Positions 14,153 through 54,757 of a stretch of 64,000 nucleotides of DNA are shown in pieces. Numbering within the stretch: the first letter of the stretch is position 1; each line of letters opens with the position of its first letter. Source of the stretch: an uncultured Azospirillum sp. (GTDB taxonomy: Bacteria; Pseudomonadota; Alphaproteobacteria; RF32; CAG-239); contig UQAB01000001.1 of NCBI GenBank assembly GCA_900538765.1, forward strand, positions 75,679 through 139,678. Direction: 5' to 3'. Both the position numbers and the translations under genes were made by a program. The notes under the pieces were generated by a model. The model ran no database searches. It saw only the letters and a program-made list of their open reading frames with translations, and was not told the DNA's origin.

Positions 14153-14185
14153 ATAAACAATCCTAAAAAACAATTCAAATAGTAT

Positions 14186-14460
14186 ATTTTGCTCGCAATT
14201 TCTGCACTGGTACCCCAAAATACACATTTCCAAGAAATGGTGAAGTTTGAGTCGAGTAGTAGGCGTCAAGGGCAGAAAAAGCGCAGTGTACAATGGCTAA
14301 GTAAAACTGTAACCAACGTTACAGTTTTATCTGTAACATCTCAGAAAATCTTAGTGAGTTAAGCTGTGACAACTGCTGCAACGAACTTAGATTCCTGAGC
14401 TAGTACATGAGCATTTTTCTGTCCCGCTGACAACGCACTAATCGACCATTACACCCCCTA
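14186..14460. repeat. degenerate family-A repeat copies: a 3' half-element, then a copy whose core is split by a ~108-bp insert
   Basis: ...TTTGCTCGCAATTTCTGCACTGGTACCCCAAAATACAC is the 3' half. Then AATGGTGAAGTTTGAG...GCGCAGTGTACA, the insert with hairpin AAACTGTAACcaacGTTACAGTTT, and ...GCTAGTACATGAGCATTTTTCTG. Confidence 0.6.
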
Positions 14461-14583
14461 AAAAATGGTGGAGTTTGAGGCTAATAGTAAGAAACAAGAG
14501 AAAATGCGAGGGAGTGTACATAGAAGTACATGACCGAACATTTTGCTCGCAGTTTCTGTACTAGTAGCCCAAAATACACCATT
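14461..14583. repeat. family-A structured repeat, intact copy
   Basis: AAAAATGGTGGAGTTTGAGGCTAATAGTAAGAAAC...GGGAGTGTACATAGAAGTACATGACCGAACATTTTGCTCGCAGTTTCTGTACTAGTAGCCCAAAATACACC. Termini are imperfectly complementary and inner stem AAAATG/CATTTT flanks the core. Confidence 0.7.
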
Positions 14584-14584
14584 T

Positions 14585-15583
14585 TTACGCTTGCAAACAA
14601 GTTATAGCAATAACCCCTACAATATCCTCAACCAAAGCCCCGCGGGACAAATCGTTGACCGGCGCATTCAATCCCTGCAATAAAGGACCATAGGCATCAC
14701 AACCGCCTAAACGCTGCAAGAGTTTATAACCAATGTTTCCAGCCTCAAGGCTTGGAAAAATCAAAACGTTAGCCTGTCCGGCAACATCGCTGCCCGGCGC
14801 TTTTTTCTTGGCGACAACACCATCCAATGCGGCATCGGCCTGCAACTCGCCGTCAAGCTTGATATTGAGTTTTTTATATTCTTCTGTCTGCAAATCTGCC
14901 TTGGCCATTTCTACGGCTCTCTTGACCTTGTCAACCCGCTCGCCCTTGCCAGAACCGTAAGTCGAATAAGAAAGCATAGCAACTTTCGGCTCAAAACCAA
15001 ACTTAAGAGCACTTTCGGCGGCATCCAGTGCAATATCGGCCATTTCCCTGTCCGTCGGATCAATAACAATACCGCAGTCAGAAAGCAAATATGGCTTATC
15101 CCCGAAAACCAGCAGGAAGAAAGAAGAAACCGCACGGCCTTTTTTAGCGGATTTAATAATCTGCAAAGCCGGACGCACCGTATCCGCCGTTGAATGATTG
15201 GCGCCGGAAACCATACCATCGGCATGACCGGATTTAATCATCAGCGTCCCGAAGTAATTATAGTTCAAAGCCAACTTTGCCGCATCTTCTTCCGTCAGAC
15301 CTTTGTCCTTGCGCAAGTCATACAAAAGTTTGGTATATTCGGCCAGCCGCGGAGAGTTTTCCGGCTTAACAATCTCGATTCCCTCCAGGCTCCATCCCTG
15401 CTTGGCAAAATGAGCCTTAATTTCGGCCTCATCTCCCAAAATAACCAGCTTGGCAACTTTTTCAGCGGCAATAAGATGTGCGGCTTCCAAAATCCGCATA
15501 TCTTCGCCTTCTGGCAAAACAATCGTTTTGTTCTTCAACTTGGCCTGTTCCATCAGGCTCTGCAAATATTTGTTATAAGACAT
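14585..15583 (-). CDS. pta: phosphate acetyltransferase (short Pta/Ptb family)
   Basis: MSYNKYLQSLMEQAKLKNKTIVLPEGEDMRILEAA... with a Pta C-terminal domain. Start at the internal ATG with SD AAGAAAAGG. Confidence 0.85.
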   Translation of the reverse strand: MSYNKYLQSLMEQAKLKNKTIVLPEGEDMRILEAAHLIAAEKVAKLVILGDEAEIKAHFAKQGWSLEGIEIVKPENSPRLAEYTKLLYDLRKDKGLTEEDAAKLALNYNYFGTLMIKSGHADGMVSGANHSTADTVRPALQIIKSAKKGRAVSSFFLLVFGDKPYLLSDCGIVIDPTDREMADIALDAAESALKFGFEPKVAMLSYSTYGSGKGERVDKVKRAVEMAKADLQTEEYKKLNIKLDGELQADAALDGVVAKKKAPGSDVAGQANVLIFPSLEAGNIGYKLLQRLGGCDAYGPLLQGLNAPVNDLSRGALVEDIVGVIAITCLQA

Positions 15584-29480: not shown

Positions 29481-29612
29481 TTAGCCGCTGTAAAAGTTTG
29501 GAGTTTGAGACTAGTAGTAAGAAACTAGAGAAACCGCGACAGGAGTGTACACAATAGTACATGACTTAGCGGTTTACTCGCTGTTTCTGTACTAATAGCC
29601 CAAAATACGAAC
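29481..29612. repeat. family-A structured repeat, single copy
   Basis: CTTAGCCGCTGTAAAAGTTTGGAGTTTGAGACTAGTAGTAAGAAAC...AAACCGCgacaGGAGTGTACACAATAGTACATGACttaGCGGTTT...GTTTCTGTACTAATAGCCCAAAATACGA. Inner stem AAACCGC/GCGGTTT. Confidence 0.65.
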
Positions 29613-29617
29613 TTTTA

Positions 29618-30082
29618 CTAAGAGCACATTTTTACCTGGCGGAGAGCCTCCCCCACCACTATCGCCGCTGAAATCGCCATATTAATGGAACGGGCCTTGG
29701 GATTCATCGGGATAAGTAAACGCGCGTCTGCCTGATTATGAACATCCTCCGGCACACCGGCGCTTTCCCGCCCCATTAAAATAATATCATGCGGCTGAAA
29801 AGAAAAATCGGTATAAGGCTCGGAAGCGTGCGTCGACATCAGAACAAGCCGGCCGTATTCTTCTGGATGCGCCGCACGATAAGCCAAAAAATCCTGCCAT
29901 GAATTATGCCGCCGGTAAGATACCTGTTCCAAATAATCCATCCCGGCTCGACGCATGGCCTTTTCATTAAAAATAAACCCGCAGGGCTCAATAATGTCGA
30001 CGGCAAAGTCAAGACAAGCCCCCAAACGCAGCAATGTCCCTGTATTTTGCGGAATATCCGGTTGAAATAAAGCCAAACGCAT
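29618..30082 (-). CDS. trmL: tRNA (cytidine/uridine-2'-O)-methyltransferase TrmL (SpoU family)
   Basis: MRLALFQPDIPQNTGTLLRLGAC is a SPOUT fold. 154 aa. Confidence 0.8.
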   Translation of the reverse strand: MRLALFQPDIPQNTGTLLRLGACLDFAVDIIEPCGFIFNEKAMRRAGMDYLEQVSYRRHNSWQDFLAYRAAHPEEYGRLVLMSTHASEPYTDFSFQPHDIILMGRESAGVPEDVHNQADARLLIPMNPKARSINMAISAAIVVGEALRQVKMCS

Positions 30083-32443: not shown

Positions 32444-32516
32444 CTGTATTCTTTCAAAAAACGGGAGCCAAGCTCCCGAAATCTTTAGCAAAACTCATCA
32501 TAAAAAAAATAAGTTG

Positions 32517-32605
32517 ATAAAGAGGTGTGCTGCGCAGCATAAATTTGACGACGTGTACAACAAACAGTACACGAGGAGAATTTATGCAAGCATGACACCT
32601 CTTTT
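32517..32605. repeat. family-B long hairpin repeat
   Basis: AAGAGGTGTGCTGCGCAGCATAAATTTgacgaCGTGTACAacaaacAGTACACGaggagAATTTATGCAAGCATGACACCTCTT has nested stems and the same core as 18411..18580. Confidence 0.55.
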
Positions 32606-32610
32606 GCGAC

Positions 32611-32901
32611 TTATTTTCTGAGGAAGTCGACGTGCAAAGCCTTATCACTAACCGGATGGAACTGAACATCCTGGCATTTAACGGAATATTTGGTACCTTC
32701 AACGTCTACTTCAATGGCAAACTTGTACAGACCTGCCATATCCAGAGCTTTTTCAACCTGTACCGGGTCAAGACTAATCATAACCGGTTCTTGTTTTCCA
32801 CCATAGATGACAGCGGGAACGCGTCCTTCACGACGACATGCGCGAGCTGCCCCCTTACCTGCCAATTCACGCTTTTTAGCATTAAAAATTAAATCAGCCA
32901 T
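32611..32901 (-). CDS. rplY: 50S ribosomal protein L25 (short, Ctc N-domain only)
   Basis: RVPAVIYGGKQEPVMISLD...EVDVEG is the L25 fold. Adjacent to pth as is typical. Confidence 0.75.
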   Translation of the reverse strand: MADLIFNAKKRELAGKGAARACRREGRVPAVIYGGKQEPVMISLDPVQVEKALDMAGLYKFAIEVDVEGTKYSVKCQDVQFHPVSDKALHVDFLRK

Positions 32902-37359: not shown

Positions 37360-39480
37360 TTATTTTTCGAGATCTTCACCGGTTTCCTGATTAACTCTCT
37401 TGGCAGAAAGTTTAATCTTACCGCGGTTATCCGTCCCCAGACATTTAACCCAAATCTCGTCGCCTTCCTTGTAAAAGTCAGAAACAGAAGCAATACGTTC
37501 GTTCTTAACCTCAGAAATATGAACCAATCCTTCCGTCTGTCCGAGGAAACGAACAAACGCACCAAAGTCCATAATCTTGGTAATCACGCCGTGATAAATC
37601 TTTCCTTCTTCCGGTTCGGCAACAATACCCATAATCCATTCCAAAGCGGCATCGCCGTCTTCCTTCTTCATGGATGCAATCTTGATAACGCCGTCATCGC
37701 TGATATCAATTTTGCAATGGGTCTTTTCGGTAATTTCACGAATAACCTTACCGCCGGAACCGATTACTTCGCGAATTTTATCAACCGGAATCTTAATCGC
37801 AACAATACGCGGCGCTTTGTCTGAAACATGTGGCCGCGGCTCGGCAATAACTTTCGCCATTTCGCCCAAAATATGAATACGGCCTTCATGAGCCTGAGCC
37901 AAAGCTGTCTGCATAATTTCTTTGGTAATGGAAGTAATCTTAATATCCATCTGCAAGGCGGTAACACCGTCTTTTGTTCCGGCAACCTTAAAATCCATAT
38001 CACCAAGATGGTCTTCATCACCGAGAATATCAGTCAAAACGGCAACCCGGCCATCATCTTCCTTAATCAACCCCATGGCAATACCGGCAACCGGCTTAGC
38101 CAAAGGAACACCGGCAGACATCAAAGACAATGTCGTTCCGCAAACGGTAGCCATCGAAGAAGAACCGTTTGATTCCAAAATCTCGGAAACAACACGAACC
38201 GTATAGGGAAAAGTATCCTTATTTTTCGGCATCATCGGATGAATAGCGCGCCATGCTAGCTTGCCGTGGCCGATTTCACGGCGTCCCGGAGCGCCGGTAC
38301 GACCGCACTCACCAACGGAAAACGGTGGAAAGTTATAATTCAGCATAAAGTCTTCTTTATATTCTTCCATCAGTCCGTCAATAATCTGCGCGTCTTCACC
38401 GGTACCCAAAGTTGTCGCAACCAGAGCCTGTGTTTCACCGCGCGTAAAGATAGCGGAACCGTGAGCCATTGGCAAAACGTCAACTTCACACCAAATCGGT
38501 CGAACAGTCTTTGTATCACGGCCGTCAATACGATGTCCCGTTGTCAAAACTTTTTCGCGAACAACCTTGTGCATTAATTTTTCCAACGCATCCTGCGCAT
38601 ATTTCTGCTCAAACTCATTTTCAGGATCAAGCGTCGCTTTAAATTCTTCGGAAGCTTTGCCAACCAGTTCACCGCGTTTCAGTTTGTCTGTTTCTTTGAA
38701 AGCTTCTTCAAACTTAGCTATAAAACCTTTCTCAAGTTTATTGTAAAGCTCGTCAAATTCCGGCGGAAACTTCGGCGCTTCCCACCGCGGTTTACCGGCT
38801 TCAGAAACCATTTCATTAATCATTTTGATAACCGGTTGGAAGCTCTCAAAACCAAACATAACCGCACCGAGCATTGTTTCTTCAGACAATTCCTGGGCTT
38901 CAGATTCTACCATCAGCACACCTTCTGATGTACCGGCAACAGCCAGTTCGAGTTCGGATTCTTTACGCTGATCCATTGTCGGATTCAAAATATACTGTCC
39001 GTCTTTATAACCAATCTTAGCCGCACCGATAGGCCCTAAGAACGGAATGCCGGAAACTGCCAGAGCAGCAGAAGCCGCAATCATGGCAACAACATCGGAA
39101 TCTGTCTGCTGGTCATGAGAAAGAACTGTACAAATAACTTGAACTTCATTTTTAAAAGCATCCGGGAACAGCGGACGAATTGGACGGTCAATCAGGCGAG
39201 AGATAAGAACTTCACGCTCGGAAGGCTTGCCTTCTCTTTTCATAAAACCGCCCGGCACTTTACCGGTAGCGTAATATTTTTCTTGATAATTAACTGTTAA
39301 AGGGAAGAAATCCTGATCGGGAGCAGCTTCCTTGGCTGCGCAAACTGTAGCTAAGACAGTGGTTCCTCCATAAGTTGCTTCCACGGCGCCGAGAGCCTGC
39401 TTAGCAATTTTACCTGTTTCTAAAACTAATTTTCTGCCGCCCCATTCCATTTCTTTGCGGCAAATATTCAATTCGACCAT
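37360..39480 (-). CDS. pnp: polynucleotide phosphorylase
   Basis: Two RNase PH domains plus KH and S1 domains. 706 aa. Sequence is diagnostic. Confidence 0.95.
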
Positions 39481-39649
39481 ATTTCTATACCTTTCATTTC
39501 ATCTTTTCAAACATCTTTATAAAACCTCACCCGAATTGGTCAAACCCGGGATTTTTAATATAAAGCACAATAATTACAATAATTGATATCGTGTAATAAA
39601 CTCCAAGTGCAAAAAAAACAGTATTCTCAAATTCTCCAGCACCTTCTTC

Positions 39650-40140
39650 AAAAAACTTGGAGTTTGAGGTCAATAGTAAGAAACTAGAGAAAATGTGAGG
39701 GAGTGTACATAGAAGTACATAACCGAACATTTTACTCGCAGTTTCTGTACTAGTGACCCAAAATACGAGTTTTTCAAAATTCACTTTTAGGAGAGCAGAT
39801 AGAGTAGTTTCCAGGTGCGAGAAAAATTCTAGTGTACAGAGAAGTACATGAATTTTTTGAGACACCCTCTCCTAAAAATGTTTTCAAAAAAACTTGGAGT
39901 TTGAGGTTAATAGTAAGAAAACAGAGAAAATGCGAGGGAGTGTACATAGAAGTACATGACCGAACATTTTACTCGCAGTTTCTGTACTAGTAACCCAAAA
40001 TACGAGTTTTTTAAAATTCACTTTTAGGAGAGCAGATAGAATAGTTTCCAGGTGCAAGAAAAATTCTAGTGTACAGAGAAGTACATGAATTTTTTGAGAC
40101 ACCGTAAAACTGCTCTAGATGCCTCATAAAAGTGAATTTT
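39650..40140. repeat. two tandem ~245-bp composite repeat units (family-A element plus a second hairpin element) filling the rpsO-pnp intergenic region
   Basis: Units at ~39652-39893 and ~39892-40140. Each has AAACTTGGAGTTTGAGGT(C/T)AATAGTAAGAAA...GGGAGTGTACATAGAAGTACAT(A/G)ACCGAA...CCCAAAATACGAGTTTTT. Then TTTTAGGAGAG...TAGTGTACAGAGAAGTACATGA...CTCTCCTAAAA. ORFs 39527..39865 and 39884..40102 are artefacts of the repeat. Confidence 0.7.
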
Positions 40141-40141
40141 T

Positions 40142-40414
40142 TTACTTACGGAGATCCAGCTTCTTAATAATTTCCTGATATCTGTCGTTGTTCTTGGCTT
40201 TCAAATAGTCAAGAAGATGGCGACGACGGCTGACCATTTTCATTAAGCCCAAACGGGAGTGCAAGTCTTTGTTATGAACATTGAAATGGCCGATAAGCTT
40301 ATTGATTCTGGCTGTCCAAATAGCAATCTGAACTTCCGGAGAACCTGTATCATTCGGATTCAAACCATAAGTATTTACAATTTCTTTTTTTTCTTCATTC
40401 GTAATAGACGACAT
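40142..40414 (-). CDS. rpsO: 30S ribosomal protein S15
   Basis: [31 protein letters not shown]... 90 aa. Confidence 0.9.
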
Positions 40415-40429
40415 CTGTATTTCCTTATT

Positions 40430-41341
40430 TTAGAGATTAAACACACGAACCGGAGCAATTTTCCGTTCTTCGATTCGCACAATCGCCGCCAGTTTACCGT
40501 TATATGTTGCCACAGCGTCTTCTCCAATGTGCTTAGAAACATCATAAGCGCGCGGAGACAGCCCCTGCCCCATTTTCAGTTTGGCGGCATCTGCTTCCGA
40601 AACAGCAATAACCGTGATGTCGCACAGAAATGTTTCTAACGGAAGCAAAAACTTATTAAGGTCTTCACCGTACACCATATTTTCTAAATTTTCCAGTAAA
40701 ATTTTCTGACTCAGATCAAAATTTCCGCATTTTGTCCGCCGCAGCTCCTGCAAATATCCTAAAGTTCCGAGTTTTAAAGCAATATCTTTGCCCAAAGTAC
40801 GGATATATGTCCCTTTGGAACAGCGGACTTTAAACCGCGCCTGCTGATTCGGCAACTCTTCAAGCAATTCCAGAGCATAGATTTCCACCTCGCGTTTGGG
40901 AATATCGACACAGATTCCCTTTCGTGCCAAATCATAAGCCCGCCGCCCGTTAATTTTAATCGCGGAATAAACCGGCGGCACCTGAACAATTTTCCCTAAA
41001 AAAGCCGGAATAACCGCTTCAATCTCCGAACGCTCGGGAATTTTCTCACATTGGGCAATCACCTCTCCCTCGGAATCATCCGTATCGGTAGAAACACCCC
41101 AACGAATAATAAATTCATACTCCTTGACGCCATCTGTCACAAAAGGCAAAAGCTTTGTCGCCTCGCCGAATGCAACCGGCAAAACCCCTGTTGCAAAAGG
41201 ATCCAGCGTCCCGGCATGGCCGTTTTTCCTGGCCCGGAACAAGCGTTTCGTCCGGCGCACCACATCTGTCGACCCCATTCCCCGGGATTTGTCAACCACC
41301 AGCCAACCGTTAATCTCTTCACCTTTGTTATGTTTCATCAA
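40430..41341 (-). CDS. truB: tRNA pseudouridine(55) synthase TruB
   Basis: GWLVVDKSRGMGSTDVVRRTKRLF...GHAGTLDPFATGVL is the catalytic Asp motif. PUA C-terminus. Confidence 0.9.
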   Translation of the reverse strand: MMKHNKGEEINGWLVVDKSRGMGSTDVVRRTKRLFRARKNGHAGTLDPFATGVLPVAFGEATKLLPFVTDGVKEYEFIIRWGVSTDTDDSEGEVIAQCEKIPERSEIEAVIPAFLGKIVQVPPVYSAIKINGRRAYDLARKGICVDIPKREVEIYALELLEELPNQQARFKVRCSKGTYIRTLGKDIALKLGTLGYLQELRRTKCGNFDLSQKILLENLENMVYGEDLNKFLLPLETFLCDITVIAVSEADAAKLKMGQGLSPRAYDVSKHIGEDAVATYNGKLAAIVRIEERKIAPVRVFNL

Positions 41342-41439: not shown

Positions 41440-42195
41440 TTAATACAGCAACGACTTTGAATAATAAAAAACAAATCTTTCGCGCACAACAACCCAAAAG
41501 TCATAGCACAAATCCGCCACACTCCTGGGAGCGCAAAACCTGTCCGCCGCCAAACGGTTTCCAAAACAGCTGTTTCGTATTTTGAAAAAACGTTCCGAAC
41601 GCCGAACCAAACTGGGATAACGCAAATCCACCCGCATAAAAATACATTTATACATCAAATATCTGAGAACAAACACCTCCGTTTTGTTTTCGACCAGCAG
41701 CAAATCGCTTTTGATTGGAAACAGCAAAGAAGCGTCAAACATACCCTGTTCCCAAACATCATAGGCATTTTCTCCTGTCCTCTTGGCAATAATCTGTTTG
41801 GAATTTTTAGCATTGCAAAACACGCTTTCATAAATTACCTGACAAAAACACCCGCTCCCGTCAAAAAAAGACGTGATATTTGCACCATAAAAATAACAGC
41901 CAAAACTTTGCCCCAAACAAATAACTTTTCCTTGCTGCAGCGTATACCAAACATTCTCTTTCTCAAAGAATATCATTTCCCGATAAAAATAAGCATTGGC
42001 AACCTCATCTGCAACAAGCATCATCGCCGCCGCATTGACAATCAACAGCGTTTCGGCATCATCAGAAATCAATATCAACAACTCTCCCTGCCGCTCGGCA
42101 CGCCCGTTTTGACAATCAATGACAACATTGCCGTCTGATTTTTTTACAATTTGTAATCTCGCATTGCCGTTTTTAAAAACTTTTTTATTTCTCAT
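41440..42195 (-). CDS. hypothetical protein (~250 aa) with family-type AU-rich leader
   Basis: Start chosen at MRNKKVFKNGN... by analogy to the leader pattern TTTAATTATTATTGTTATATTTTTATG. The ORF-track start at 42234 lies inside the AT-rich leader. No domain recognised. Confidence 0.4.
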   Translation of the reverse strand: MRNKKVFKNGNARLQIVKKSDGNVVIDCQNGRAERQGELLILISDDAETLLIVNAAAMMLVADEVANAYFYREMIFFEKENVWYTLQQGKVICLGQSFGCYFYGANITSFFDGSGCFCQVIYESVFCNAKNSKQIIAKRTGENAYDVWEQGMFDASLLFPIKSDLLLVENKTEVFVLRYLMYKCIFMRVDLRYPSLVRRSERFFKIRNSCFGNRLAADRFCAPRSVADLCYDFWVVVRERFVFYYSKSLLY

Positions 42196-42300
42196 AAAAA
42201 TATAACAATAATAATTAAACATATAAATAAACAAACTTCGGCAACATAATCCCGCTTTAAATGAAAATCAACTTTTTTTTACATTTTTTTCTTTTTCTCC
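42196..42300 (-). promoter_or_regulatory. promoter plus AU-rich leader (family-like)
   Basis: TTGATT-17nt-TATGTT then an AT-rich leader. Confidence 0.35.
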
Positions 42301-42361: not shown

Positions 42362-42745
42362 TTAATCCTTATTATCTAAATCCTGTCTGACTTTGGGATT
42401 TCTCAGCAATTTCTCAATCTTGTCAACTTCTTCAAATGTTTTATCAATACGGAAATTTAGCTCCGGTACATATCTCAAATCGGTTTTGGAAATAATCACC
42501 TTGCGCAAATAATTGGCAGCCAACTGTAAACCGCCGATAACTTCCTGCTCCTTGCTTTTGTCAGAAGTAATGACATAAACTGTTGCATATTTCAAATCAG
42601 GAGAAACGCGCGCTTCCATAATCGTCACCAGCGTATTAACCCCTTGCAAATTACGAATTTCATCCCGTTCAACCTGATTGGCAATAATCTTCTTAATTTC
42701 CTGTCCAACTCTCAGCTGACGTTGCGACGGCTCTTTCTCTGCCAT
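42362..42745 (-). CDS. rbfA: ribosome-binding factor A
   Basis: RQLRVGQEIKKIIANQVER... KH-like fold. 127 aa. Confidence 0.85.
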   Translation of the reverse strand: MAEKEPSQRQLRVGQEIKKIIANQVERDEIRNLQGVNTLVTIMEARVSPDLKYATVYVITSDKSKEQEVIGGLQLAANYLRKVIISKTDLRYVPELNFRIDKTFEEVDKIEKLLRNPKVRQDLDNKD

Positions 42746-51819: not shown

Positions 51820-52255
51820 AGCCGTAGTAAAAAGTTCAGAGTTTGCGGCAGATAATAAGAATCTCGGAAAAAGACGAAGGGAGTGTACATAGAAGTACAT
51901 GACCGAGTATTTTTTCAATGTTCTGTATTAGATGCCCAAAATACGCAGCAACAAACCCAAACCCCGACCTTAGCCGCTGTAAAAAGGTCGGAGTTTGCGG
52001 CAGATAATAAGAATCTCGGAAAAAGACGAAGGAAGTGTACACAGAAGTACATGACCGAGTATTTTTCCGAGATTCTGTATTAGGTACCCAAAATACGCAG
52101 CAACAAACCCAAGCCCCGACCTTAGCCGCTGTAAAAAGGTCGGAGTTTGCGGCAGATAATAAGAATCTCGGAAAAAGACGAAGGGAGTGTACACAGAAGT
52201 ACATGACCGAGTATTTTTCCGAGATTCTGTATTAGGTGCCCAAAATACGAGCTTT
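51820..52255. repeat. three tandem ~152-bp family-A-variant repeat units between infB stop and the 51085 gene promoter
   Basis: Each unit is ...CCGACCTTAGCCGCTGTAAAAAGGTCGGAGTTTGCGGCAGATAATAAGAATCTCGGAAAAAgacgaaGGGAGTGTACACAGAAGTACATGACCGAGTATTTTTCCGAGATTCTGTATTAGGT(A/G)CCCAAAATACG... ORFs 51836..52204, 51883..52083, 51970..52287, 52035..52235 and 52187..52393 are repeat artefacts. Confidence 0.7.
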
Positions 52256-54757
52256 TTACAATGTTGCGGCGATTTCCTCCACCTCATAACACTCTATAAA
52301 GTCACCGACTTGAATATCGTTATAGTTTTCAAAACTCATACCGCATTCATAGCCGGATTTGACCTCTTTAACATCTTCCTTAAAGCGTTTTAGCTGAGCC
52401 AAAGCGCCATCATGAATAACAACATTGTCACGCAGCAGACGAACCTTGGCACCACGCTTGACAAAGCCTTCCGTCACCATGCAGCCGCCGACTTTACCGA
52501 CACCGGTAATATTGAAGACATTGCGGATTTCGGCATAACCGATAATCTTTTCTCTCAATTCAGGCGACAACATACCTTCCAAAGCCTTCTTAATGTCATC
52601 GGCCACATCATAAATAATCGAGTAATAACGAATATCCACGCCGTCCTGACGCGCCATGTCACGGGCATGCGGAATAGCACGGACGTTAAAGCCGATGATA
52701 AAGGCATTGGAAGCCTTAGCCAGAGTAACATCGGAATCCGAAATAGGACCAACGGCAGAATGCAAAATCTGAACGCTGACTTCCTCGTTGGACAACTTCT
52801 TAATTGTACCTTCAATAGCCTCAATAGAACCTTGAACATCAGCCTTGATAATAACCGGCAAATGCTTAACTTCGCCTGACTTAATCTTATCAAGCATCTG
52901 TTCCATTGCAGACTTGGCACTCTTAACCAGTTTAGCGTCACGTTCTTTGCGAATACGATAACCGGTAACTTCCTTAGCCTGGTTTTCGTCCTTAACAATG
53001 ACAAAATCGTCACCGGCTGCCGGCGTTCCTTGCAAACCGAGAATTTCAACTGGGGTCGCCGGACCGGCTTCCGTCATCTTCTTGCCATGTTCGTTAAACA
53101 TAGCGCGGACATGTCCCCACTCCTTACCGGCAATACAAATATCACCAACGCGCAGCGTACCGTTCTGAACCAGAACCGTTGCAACAGAACCGCGGCCTTT
53201 TTCCATCTTGGCTTCAACAACCGTACCCGAAGCCATGCGATTCGGGTTGGCTTTCAAATCCAGAATTTCCGCCTGCAACAGAATAGCTTCAACCAGCTTA
53301 TCAATGTTAATACGCTTCTTAGCCGAAACTTCTGCGCTCAAATATTCACCGCCCATATCTTCAACGGCAATGCCATGTTGCAATAAAGCGGTCTTCACCT
53401 TCATCGGATCAGCGCCCGGAAGGTCAATCTTGTTAATCGCAACCACAATCGGCACTTCTGCAGCCTGAGCATGGCGGATTGCCTCAACCGTCTGCGGCAT
53501 AATGCCGTCATTGGCAGCAACCACCAGAACCACAATATCGGTAACCTTTGCACCGCGAGCACGCATTTCTGAAAAGGCCTCGTGTCCCGGCGTATCAATA
53601 AAGGCAATCTTTTTGCCTCCGGCAACTTCAATCTGATAAGCACCGATATGTTGCGTAATACCACCAGCCTCGCGAGAAGCAACGTTTGTTTCGCGCAAAG
53701 CATCCAATAACGAAGTCTTACCATGGTCAACGTGTCCCATAACCGTAACCACCGGCGCTCTCGGCAGCAAATCGGCGTCCGTATCTTCCGGACCGGTCAA
53801 CCCCTGCTCAACATCGCTGTCGGCAACTCGTTTAAACTTATGTCCGAATTCCTCAACCACAATCTGCGCCGTATCGGCATCAATCGGTTGGTTAATCGTA
53901 GCCATAACCCCTAAAGCCATCAGCTTTTTAATAACTTCGGCACCTTTTTCTGCCATACGGTTAGCCAATTCCTGAACCGTAATAATTTCAGGAATAACGA
54001 CCTCTTTAACAATTTTTTCTGTCGGCTGCTGAAAAGCCTGCTGCTTCGGCTGTTTTTTCTTAAACCGACGCCGGCCGCCGCCAAAACCATAATCATCGTC
54101 ATCTTCATCAACACTGCTCAATGTATGCAGGTTGACTTTTCCGCCGCGCCGCGGTGTTTCAAAACTGCGCTTCATAACTTTTTTGCGCTCTTGTTCAAAA
54201 ACATCATCTTTGCTCAAAGATCTTTCGGCAACTTTTTTAAACTTATGATTATGGGAATCTTCTTCCTCGTCTTCGTCCTCTTCATCGAAATCGCGGGACT
54301 TCTTTTCCTTAATCTTCTGAATACGATCATCCTCAGCCGGTGAAACCGCTGCCGTTACCACAGGACGAACAGCTGCTTTTTTCTCCTCCGCCGCCTTTTT
54401 AGCTTCTTCGGCTTCCCGTTGAGCCTTTTCCTGCTCTTCCTGTTCACGTCTCAGCTGGCGCTGGCGTTCCTTCTCTTCTTCCTCCTGCCGGCGTTTGGCA
54501 TCATGCTCTTTAGCCTCGGCAATAAGCCGCAGCTTTGCAGCTGTCGCTTCGTCAATTTTAACTTTAGGCTCTTCCGTTTCGCTGCGATTGGCGATAACCC
54601 TCTTCTTTCGCACTTCAACCTGAACAATCTTCTTGCCGTCATTATTGTGCGCCCGGGAACCGTCGCTTACATTTTTGAGTGTAAGGGTAGATTTACCTGA
54701 TAATGTTAATTTGCTTTTTGCATTATCTTCTGTCATTAATTTTTTTCTCCGTATCAT
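52256..54757 (-). CDS. infB: translation initiation factor IF-2
   Basis: GTPase domain [19 protein letters not shown]...DTPGHEAF...NKID and the IF-2 C-terminal domains. An alternative start is the ATG at 54736. Confidence 0.95.

Follow-up and report, generated by a model that had tools for sequence, protein, structure and literature searches.

Is the structured spacer between rpsO and pnp in this DNA a regulatory device of pnp, or does it have another origin? In the 64-kb stretch analysed here (the window), rpsO, the gene for ribosomal protein S15, is separated from pnp, the gene for polynucleotide phosphorylase (PNPase), by a gap of 661 nt (39481-40141) that contains a stack of long hairpins. 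In Escherichia coli, an RNase III hairpin in the pnp leader serves the autoregulation of PNPase, and an earlier note on this DNA had proposed that the stems seen here could replace or modulate such control. We arrive at a different explanation: the spacer was invaded by four copies of a small, non-autonomous mobile hairpin of the ERIC/IRU type, amplified locally by a 237-nt tandem duplication or by unequal recombination. We assign this reading a probability of about 0.72. In particular, we are fairly confident that the elements are ERIC-type mobile repeats rather than a dedicated regulator, and we regard a measurable effect of the array on pnp expression as doubtful.

Anatomy of the repeat array

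Both genes are located on the minus strand, rpsO at 40142-40414 (NCBIfam TIGR00952, 117.6 bits) and pnp at 37360-39480 (NCBIfam TIGR03591, 1037 bits). Two tandem units of 237 nt, which are 95% identical to each other, fill positions 39650-40141, and each unit consists of one A and one B hairpin element. Tandem Repeats Finder reports 39650-40103 with a period of 237, 1.9 copies, 95% matches, and a score of 845, and a repeat search matches 39650-39866 with 39887-40103 at 96%. The earlier description of a spacer of about 660 bp with two tandem composite units was accurate in this respect. The statement that the spacer consists almost entirely of repeats went too far: they occupy 492 of the 661 nt (74%), and the 169 nt beside pnp are unique.

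To describe the elements, we use two covariance models: R1, built from the A/B repeat family, and R2, built from gammaproteobacterial ERICs (see below). In the direction of transcription, that is, on the minus strand, the order is rpsO TAA, B2, A2, B1, A1, unique leader, and pnp ATG. B2 (40013-40141, 129 nt) is a full-length element of the B subfamily, an inverted repeat that R1 matches with 94 bits (E 5e-20) and that alone folds at -47.6 kcal/mol with 49 pairs. Its outer stem has 14 bp of perfect pairing, AAAAUUCACUUUUA/UAAAAGUGAAUUUU; the outer stem that had been reported for the second unit, AAAATTCACTTTTAGGAG/CTCATAAAAGTGAATTTT, is present at 40013-40030 and 40123-40140 (18 nt, 94%). The rpsO TAA stop abuts B2, with an offset of -5 from the covariance-model boundary. 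A2 (39887-40012, 126 nt) belongs to the ERIC-like A subfamily, is matched by R1 with 117 bits and end to end by R2 with 21.3 bits (E 0.0023), and folds at -35.7 kcal/mol. B1 (39776-39886, 111 nt), delimited by its alignment with B2, is a decayed copy of the latter: about 17-19 nt of one arm are deleted internally, the distal end is degenerate, and the outer stem is partly lost; R1 matches it only in part (39813-39868, 46 bits). It retains the stem UUUUAGGAGAG/CUCUCCUAAAA, and the stem TTTTAGGAGAG/CTCTCCTAAAA that had been noted for the first unit is also present. A1 (39650-39775, 126 nt), again an ERIC-like A element, is matched by R1 with 118.7 bits and end to end by R2 with 26.9 bits (E 6.7e-5), and folds at -44.4 kcal/mol. 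The unique leader next to pnp (39481-39649, 169 nt) was defined by alignment of the same-species spacers.

Folded as RNA, the transcribed strand of the spacer reaches -206 kcal/mol, against -131 +/- 6.7 kcal/mol for shuffled sequences (z = -11.3). Single elements form, in the mRNA sense, an irregular helix of 36-49 bp with a free energy of -36 to -48 kcal/mol, in which the longest perfect runs are 8-14 bp. A scan of the window against Rfam gave no match at gathering thresholds, and under permissive settings it gave only chance-level matches to microRNA precursors and VrrA (E 0.2-4.7).

Copy number at the locus and dispersal of the family

Ten contigs carry an identical S15 and, together with the window, give 11 sequences of the same species, among which three lengths of the spacer occur. 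The 661-nt allele, B2-A2-B1-A1, is found in the window and on contigs L001, L004-L007, and L009, with one variant that has a 9-nt deletion and one that has a T9 tract. In the 533-nt allele (L002, L008, and L010), B2 is absent as a block and the rpsO stop abuts A2. The 424-nt allele (L003) has one B and one chimeric A element, which is consistent with unequal recombination between A2 and A1. The number of elements per allele is accordingly two, three, or four. The 169-nt leader is invariant in the 11 sequences except for the T8/T9 tract (39611-39618) and a 9-nt tandem duplication (39567-39584), which reads AATTATTGT twice on the gene strand and is single in L004.

These alleles also bear on whether the spacer encodes protein. 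Two open reading frames (ORFs), 39527-39865 (112 aa) and 39884-40102 (72 aa), are situated on the gene strand, and a gene caller annotated one of them on L003. However, neither has an NCBIfam match, the T8/T9 polymorphism and the 128-nt indel fall inside or across them, and they traverse repeats that are non-coding elsewhere. We give practically no credence to a coding function.

A and B are two subfamilies of one structured repeat of about 125 nt (123-131 nt) with compensatory base-pair changes. At four loci, the 64 kb of the window contain eight copies of full length and a decayed one, B1. Outside the rpsO-pnp spacer, family A occurs at 14460-14587, 29490-29618, and 51831-52258, always on the plus strand, and each of these loci abuts the stop codon of a minus-strand gene, namely, pta, trmL, and infB, respectively. 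The first locus is a full A-type element between pta and ackA that touches the pta stop codon. The second has convergent genes on its two sides: the trmL stop is 2 nt away, and at a distance of 48 nt stands the stop of a 453-aa ORF without an NCBIfam match. The third consists of three tandem A-type elements with a 152-nt period, located right after the stop of infB (52256-54757, minus strand). The infB array also varies between strains, with one copy at the orthologous locus on L108 versus three in the window.

Some weaker matches accompany these loci. Downstream of the pta element, the region 14164-14313 contains partial A-profile matches at 14184-14227 and 14235-14292, which look like remnants of older, decayed copies. 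Both overlap the 5' extension annotated for the ackA ORF, in which homology to the ackA models starts only at residue 48. On the plus strand, the family model matches 32506-32617 weakly but over its full length (23 bits, E 0.007); this match, which starts 4 nt from the stop of a minus-strand ORF, may be a diverged family member.

For the search outside the window, a metagenome collection was scanned with the 17-nt apical motif GTGTACANAGAAGTACAT, and the resulting contigs were searched with nhmmer and the covariance model. In these contigs, chosen solely by the apical motif, R1 recovered about 80 family copies, some of them on high-GC contigs apparently from soil. Because B-type copies sit at many unrelated loci in the metagenome contigs, B is a dispersed subfamily and is not special to the rpsO-pnp spacer. 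Likewise, the clustering of elements is a general habit of the family and not a peculiarity of this locus, since pairs and triplets are common on other contigs; adjacent or tandem examples are found on L094 (7482-7746), L199 (1330-1587), L153 (8956-9209), and L192 (1-337).

Among the apparent soil contigs, L125, L181, L170, L126, L136, L163, L169, L187, and L194 (GC 0.54-0.62) carry hairpins of about 125 nt with the apical sequence GGAGTGTACANAGAAGTACATGAGG, and in several high-GC contigs a long ORF ends no more than 12 nt from the hairpin. A contig classed as viral, L216 (IMG/VR UViG_3300029572_000326), has two members, at 1273-1403 and 6469-6596, one of which is of B type with the 5' extension TTAGCCGCTGTAAAAG that is found in several chromosomal copies too.

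The two subfamilies have a common layout and join one alignable consensus. It consists of a basal stem, an internal loop UGGAG/AUACG or a paired variant thereof, the conserved segments ..AUAG../..CUAG.., variable stems, and the apical part AGUGUACA-NAGAAG-UACAUGA. When 21 diverse copies were folded jointly with RNAalifold, one long hairpin was obtained, in which 26 of the 32 pairs have changed on both sides. Most copies, read in the mRNA sense, start with TAAAAG and end with CTTTTA.

Base pairs that are asymmetric between the strands are relevant to a reading in which the repeats are structured-RNA genes on the plus strand, antisense to rpsO-pnp and comparable to SraG of E. coli, which provides a precedent (PMC5029454). 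The plus-strand RNA form is more stable in 26 of 30 distinct copies (mean -5.9 kcal/mol), and on that strand the apical stem has G.U as its basal pair in 19 of 21 copies. Apart from this apical pair, however, G.U (24) and A.C (23) mismatches are balanced, which argues against strand-specific selection. Furthermore, no promoter accompanies the copies, the sole plus-strand site (39555-39583, see below) is within chance, no Rfam family matches, and copy-number polymorphism together with tandem arrays fits mobile DNA better. We consider the antisense reading to be very unlikely.

A second property that connects the copies is their position relative to stop codons. We define model-plus as the orientation of the plus strand of the window, in which the gene on the 3' side of an element runs on the opposite strand and has its stop at the element boundary. 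In 50 of 79 distinct copies, a frame that is open for at least 250 nt ends between -15 and +5 nt from one boundary, and the mirror arrangement is found in 4. The binomial probability of 50 versus 4 is about 4e-11, computed on copies that are not fully independent, as some represent orthologous loci in different strains. Exceptions to the rule are mostly elements inside tandem arrays. In most copies, the TAA is itself the first triplet of the basal stem (UAAAAG...CUUUUA). The conservation of this arrangement across very different base compositions argues that it reflects either target choice as a mechanism or translation-coupled mRNA decay as a function.

Since the hairpin follows a stop codon, integron attC sites, REP/RAYT elements, IS200/IS605 ends, Xer sites, and SECIS elements were also considered. 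All were rejected by inspection, on the grounds that R''/R' boxes (RYYYAAC/GTTRRRY) are lacking, that the genes are in housekeeping synteny, that the size is wrong, and that the stops are mostly TAA.

The earlier note had also pointed to related genomes as a comparison for this spacer. The four nearest species in our genome set (L011-L014) have spacers of 95-150 nt without an element, and the related species L128 has a spacer of about 340 nt, also without one. With five related species free of repeats at rpsO-pnp, the comparison does not support a device dedicated to pnp. As a wider reference, 71 alphaproteobacterial rpsO-pnp loci have a median spacer of 233 nt (range 44-1378).

In the light of these results, we can judge the proposal that the stacked stems serve RNase III as dedicated substrates and take over or modulate the autoregulation of PNPase, as the leader hairpin does in E. 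coli. Speaking for it are the irregular helix of 36-49 bp that every element forms in the mRNA sense, the lack of a terminator hit between the two genes, and the B element that follows rpsO in a second species too. In addition, Correia/NEMIS, a family of MITEs (miniature inverted-repeat transposable elements) in Neisseria, provides a parallel: these small hairpin-forming mobile repeats are co-transcribed with neighbouring genes, and their RNA stems are cleaved by RNase III (PMC2229807, PMC10969869). Correia/NEMIS elements are set apart, by description, through terminal inverted repeats of 24-26 bp, a site for IHF, restriction to Neisseria, and the lack of any described anchoring at stop codons; we saw no kinship in sequence with the A/B repeats, although no search was aimed at it. 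The stacked hairpins are real, but the likeness to the enterobacterial hairpin is one of analogy. The longest perfect helices are only 8-14 bp, and the closest studied relatives of the elements, the ERICs of Yersinia, implicate RNase E.

The same elements are found behind pta, trmL, infB, and dozens of other, unrelated genes, their number at rpsO-pnp varies within the species, and a small conserved leader hairpin is retained. With the E. coli rpsO-pnp operon, in which the antisense small RNA SraG is also encoded (PMC5029454), the locus shares the gene pair, structured RNA between the genes, and a possible entry point for nucleases. The E. coli hairpin, however, is single, unique, conserved, and located downstream of the pnp promoter, whereas the elements here are multi-copy, variable in number, and located upstream of a different small conserved hairpin. 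A dedicated RNase III device is, in our estimation, quite unlikely.

Relationship to ERIC

When plasmids were searched by blastn with one of the soil copies, a match came up on a Yersinia frederiksenii plasmid: a 126-nt hairpin located between xylA and xylB, to which R1 also aligns from end to end (21 bits). Because of this match, we compared the family with ERIC/IRU elements. ERIC is a MITE of 127 bp that has terminal inverted repeats with TA at its ends and forms an RNA hairpin (PMC2229807, PMC3184786, PMC10969869, PMC2267715), and its range is given as limited to Enterobacteriaceae and Vibrionaceae (PMC10969869).

R2 was built from seven gammaproteobacterial ERICs (E. coli ybhI-ybhJ, Proteus, an IncN plasmid, Citrobacter, Vibrio, Salmonella clpP-clpX, and Rahnella) and was applied, with filters off, to the plus and minus strands over the full length of the window. 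The five matches that score best are exactly the five full-length A copies, matched over model positions 1-129 and on the plus strand only: 29489-29619 (30.8 bits, E 6e-6, the best in the window), 39651-39774 (E 6.7e-5), 14459-14587 (E 7.8e-5), 39886-40013 (E 2.3e-3), and 52130-52259 (E 0.16). Since the reverse complements, which are equally good hairpins, do not score, the signal is sequence-specific and oriented and does not reflect mere hairpin formation. R2 also matches the metagenome copies on L103, L157, and L092. Two of these contigs hold intermediates (L092 1197-1324 and L103 748-876) that combine the ERIC arm motif AAGGCGGC...GCAGCCAAC with the apical GTGTACANAGAAGTACAT of the A/B family.

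The seven canonical ERICs and the A/B family share their size, termini that end in TA (in most copies of A/B), and the core layout GGAG-[6-bp stem, 4-6-nt loop]-TGA-...-GAGC, and their arm motifs are similar (TTCGAGTTGCAGG versus TCGGAGTTTGCGG, and GTATGACGAG versus AATACGAG). More generally, like ERIC/IRU/RU-1, the A/B elements are imperfect palindromes of about 127 nt that form one long hairpin, with A+T-rich termini that, in most A/B copies, start and end with TA. Besides the GGAG-[6-bp apical stem, 4-6-nt loop]-TGA core, both have GAGTT(T)G..GG close to the left end and ACGAG close to the right one. Both are found in intergenic locations that are transcribed (for A/B, probably transcribed), in one orientation at stop codons, and in copy numbers that vary between strains.

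With respect to orientation, the ERICs at E. coli ybhI, Salmonella clpP, and a Rahnella ABC gene lie 1-24 nt past the stop codon in the same relative orientation as A/B copies, and De Gregorio in 2005 reportedly found that Yersinia ERICs adjoining stop codons share one orientation. Reviews confirm that the orientation of ERIC matters (PMC2229807). There are also clear differences from ERIC: the A/B host is an alphaproteobacterium, the core is GTGTACANAGAAGTACAT instead of the ERIC GCTTACATAAGTAAGT, similarity at the level of blastn is absent, and two subfamilies are interleaved in tandem arrays. For scale, the ERIC core sequence, which we take to be that of the ERIC-PCR primers, occurs with a median of 9 copies per E. 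coli genome.

On the basis of these profile and structure similarities, we place the A/B repeats on a distant branch of an ERIC superfamily, outside ERIC proper. The array itself is a cluster of ERIC-like MITEs in a host class where none were expected, and our literature searches for ERIC-like repeats in Alphaproteobacteria found none. The elements also have the general attributes of bacterial MITEs: they are shorter than 200 bp, non-coding, and multi-copy, and their presence or absence varies between strains. ERIC-type repeats are known from enteric bacteria and vibrios and serve widely in strain typing; the data suggest that they have relatives, if distant ones, among uncultured Alphaproteobacteria of the gut and in metagenomes from soil. 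The size, the hairpin architecture, and the stop-codon-anchored orientation of ERIC are kept in these relatives, and further members could help to find the transposase.

Several observations weigh against the mobile-repeat reading. Kinship with ERIC is distant and rests on profile and structure similarity together with the intermediates: the canonical E. coli ERIC escapes R1, the B copies escape R2, and a blastn search with an A copy against plasmids that hold hundreds of ERICs gave no match. Note that R1 and R2 were quickly calibrated, and that their E-values are rough. As for mobility, neither an autonomous parent element nor a transposase was found: the window and the other loci collected contain no split left and right halves of an element flanking 0.3-4 kb, a small sample that makes for weak evidence. 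A TA target-site duplication is not readable in the sole pair of filled and empty sites (B2 in the 661-nt versus the 533-nt allele), because this site lies in an A-run; the difference could equally be a slippage deletion. In the second species (L156/L137), one B-type element stands immediately behind the rpsO stop, and its retention there could be the work of selection. Finally, a sigma-70-like sequence downstream of the repeats, TTGACC (39543-39538) and TATAAA (39521-39516) with a 16-nt spacing, could give pnp a promoter of its own.

A broader generalization is possible, although we think it rather improbable at present. The ERIC superfamily may extend beyond Enterobacterales and Vibrionaceae to Alphaproteobacteria of the gut, to soil bacteria of high GC, and to a contig classed as viral, and its defining trait, a stop codon in the basal stem in a fixed orientation, may make it a portable, translation-coupled switch on decay of mRNA 3' ends. 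If this were true, four switches in front of pnp would tie the dose of a hairpin-digesting exonuclease to the efficiency of hairpin processing, and the breadth of the family would offer a comparative route to the enzyme that mobilises ERIC.

The probable native pnp leader and probable transcription through the array

In the related species, the spacer has an organization of its own. On L011-L013, L128, and L156/L137, a GC-rich, terminator-like hairpin follows rpsO, and within about 10 nt there comes a second hairpin, AAAAAUCC-stem-loop-GGUG(A/C/G)GG, which sits just upstream of the pnp ribosome-binding site, 40-90 nt before pnp. The second hairpin is found around 2950-2990 on L011, L012, and L013 and around 9515-9545 on L156; on L014, the first, terminator-like hairpin is present, and the second motif is not recognisable.

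The window has a corresponding small hairpin, AAAAAUCC-CG..CG-GGUGAGG, at 39525-39556 on the minus strand, downstream of all repeats, as identified by comparison with L011, L012, L013, L156, L137, and L128. At least five related species share it, and the changes in its stem of 4-9 bp are fully compensatory: CCCG/CGGG in the window, and CCTAG/CTAGG, CCTAGGGAC/GTCTTTAGG, CCTGC/GCAGG, and CCTCA/TGAGG elsewhere. Rfam has no match for it. It is probably the native pnp leader element of the clade. As for the idea that long stems replace pnp autoregulation, nothing has visibly been replaced, because this covarying hairpin beside the pnp ribosome-binding site is kept.

The position of the array relative to these native elements is the main reason to think that it is transcribed. 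On L156, the B element precedes the terminator-like hairpin, which places it in the 3' untranslated region (UTR) of rpsO; by position, the same is true in the window. The array would probably be transcribed with rpsO, and with pnp as well: an intrinsic terminator scan predicted no canonical terminator between the two genes, and related species leave no room for a promoter between their native hairpins, from which we infer read-through into pnp.

The alternative is that the elements act as mobile bidirectional terminators or insulators, so that rpsO transcription ends in the array and pnp is expressed from its own promoter, TTGACC-16-TATAAA (39543-39516). Many copies indeed have an A-run before and a T-run after the hairpin, copies lie right behind stop codons and one lies between convergent genes, and the GC-rich terminator-like hairpin that follows rpsO in related species has no clear counterpart in the window. 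The T-run, however, belongs to a weak basal stem adjoined by an internal loop and not to a GC-rich stem; several copies have no T-run at all, and the terminator scan found nothing.

The promoter-like sequence downstream of the repeats was read directly from the sequence; our promoter scan did not list it, because its rule demands T at position 6 of the -10 hexamer. Its TTGACC is in the loop of the conserved leader hairpin and its TATAAA in the flank, and the hexamers are not conserved in the related species. Together with the read-through that the lack of promoter room implies, this makes the terminator reading unlikely. The promoter scan itself found a single plus-strand sigma-70-like site, TTAATA-17-AATAAT (39555-39583), which is antisense to the pnp leader and points into the repeats; this number does not exceed chance (1 found, 2.9 expected).

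Returning to an invasion by ERIC-type repeats, we can outline how the array might act on the transcript. Being located in the rpsO 3'UTR, upstream of the ancestral terminator and leader region, it would be transcribed with rpsO and, via read-through, with pnp. In Yersinia, the only case known, ERICs exert an orientation-dependent, ribosome-sensitive effect of RNase E on the upstream mRNA (PMC2229807, PMC10969869). By analogy, a ribosome that terminates at the rpsO stop would melt the basal part of the first hairpin and so give access to endonucleases, namely, RNase E and possibly, on the long helices, RNase III. Cleavage would then split the transcript into an rpsO part with hairpins at its end and a pnp part with hairpins at its start, and would alter their relative stabilities. 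Any effect on pnp would be a by-product of insertion that is tolerated at several dosages, with the native leader still in place.

The burial of the stop codon in the hairpin base may have a further consequence, for which REP elements offer a parallel. Liang, Rudd and Deutscher reportedly found in 2015 that a REP no more than about 15 nt from the stop codon hinders terminating ribosomes and lowers the expression of the upstream gene in E. coli. REPs differ from the A/B elements in length (20-40 nt), in being an unrelated family, and in their mobilisation by RAYT transposases. For the biology of pnp, the locus gives reason for caution, in that a long structured leader can be a strain-variable pile-up of mobile hairpins and not a regulatory device.

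The surroundings of the spacer are those of a housekeeping cluster with the gene order rbfA-truB-rpsO-pnp; truB (40430-41341) and rbfA (42362-42745; NCBIfam equivalog models) are also on the minus strand and were assigned with NCBIfam. The nearest PNPases in a set of species-representative genomes come from uncultured Alphaproteobacteria and are 78-81% identical (closest, 81%), followed by those of Azospirillum and other Alphaproteobacteria with at most 65%. An identical S15 occurs on hundreds of metagenome contigs, several of which are human-gut assemblies; roughly 576 contig blocks have this S15, and ERZ1311629 and ERZ28619117 are among the samples with the species. The host is an uncultured alphaproteobacterium, sampled mostly from gut metagenomes, and not an enterobacterium. 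Between rbfA and truB, an ORF of about 251-264 aa (41440-42234, minus strand) with no Pfam hit on record interrupts the otherwise conserved cluster; it is present in all same-species contigs and is split in two in L004.

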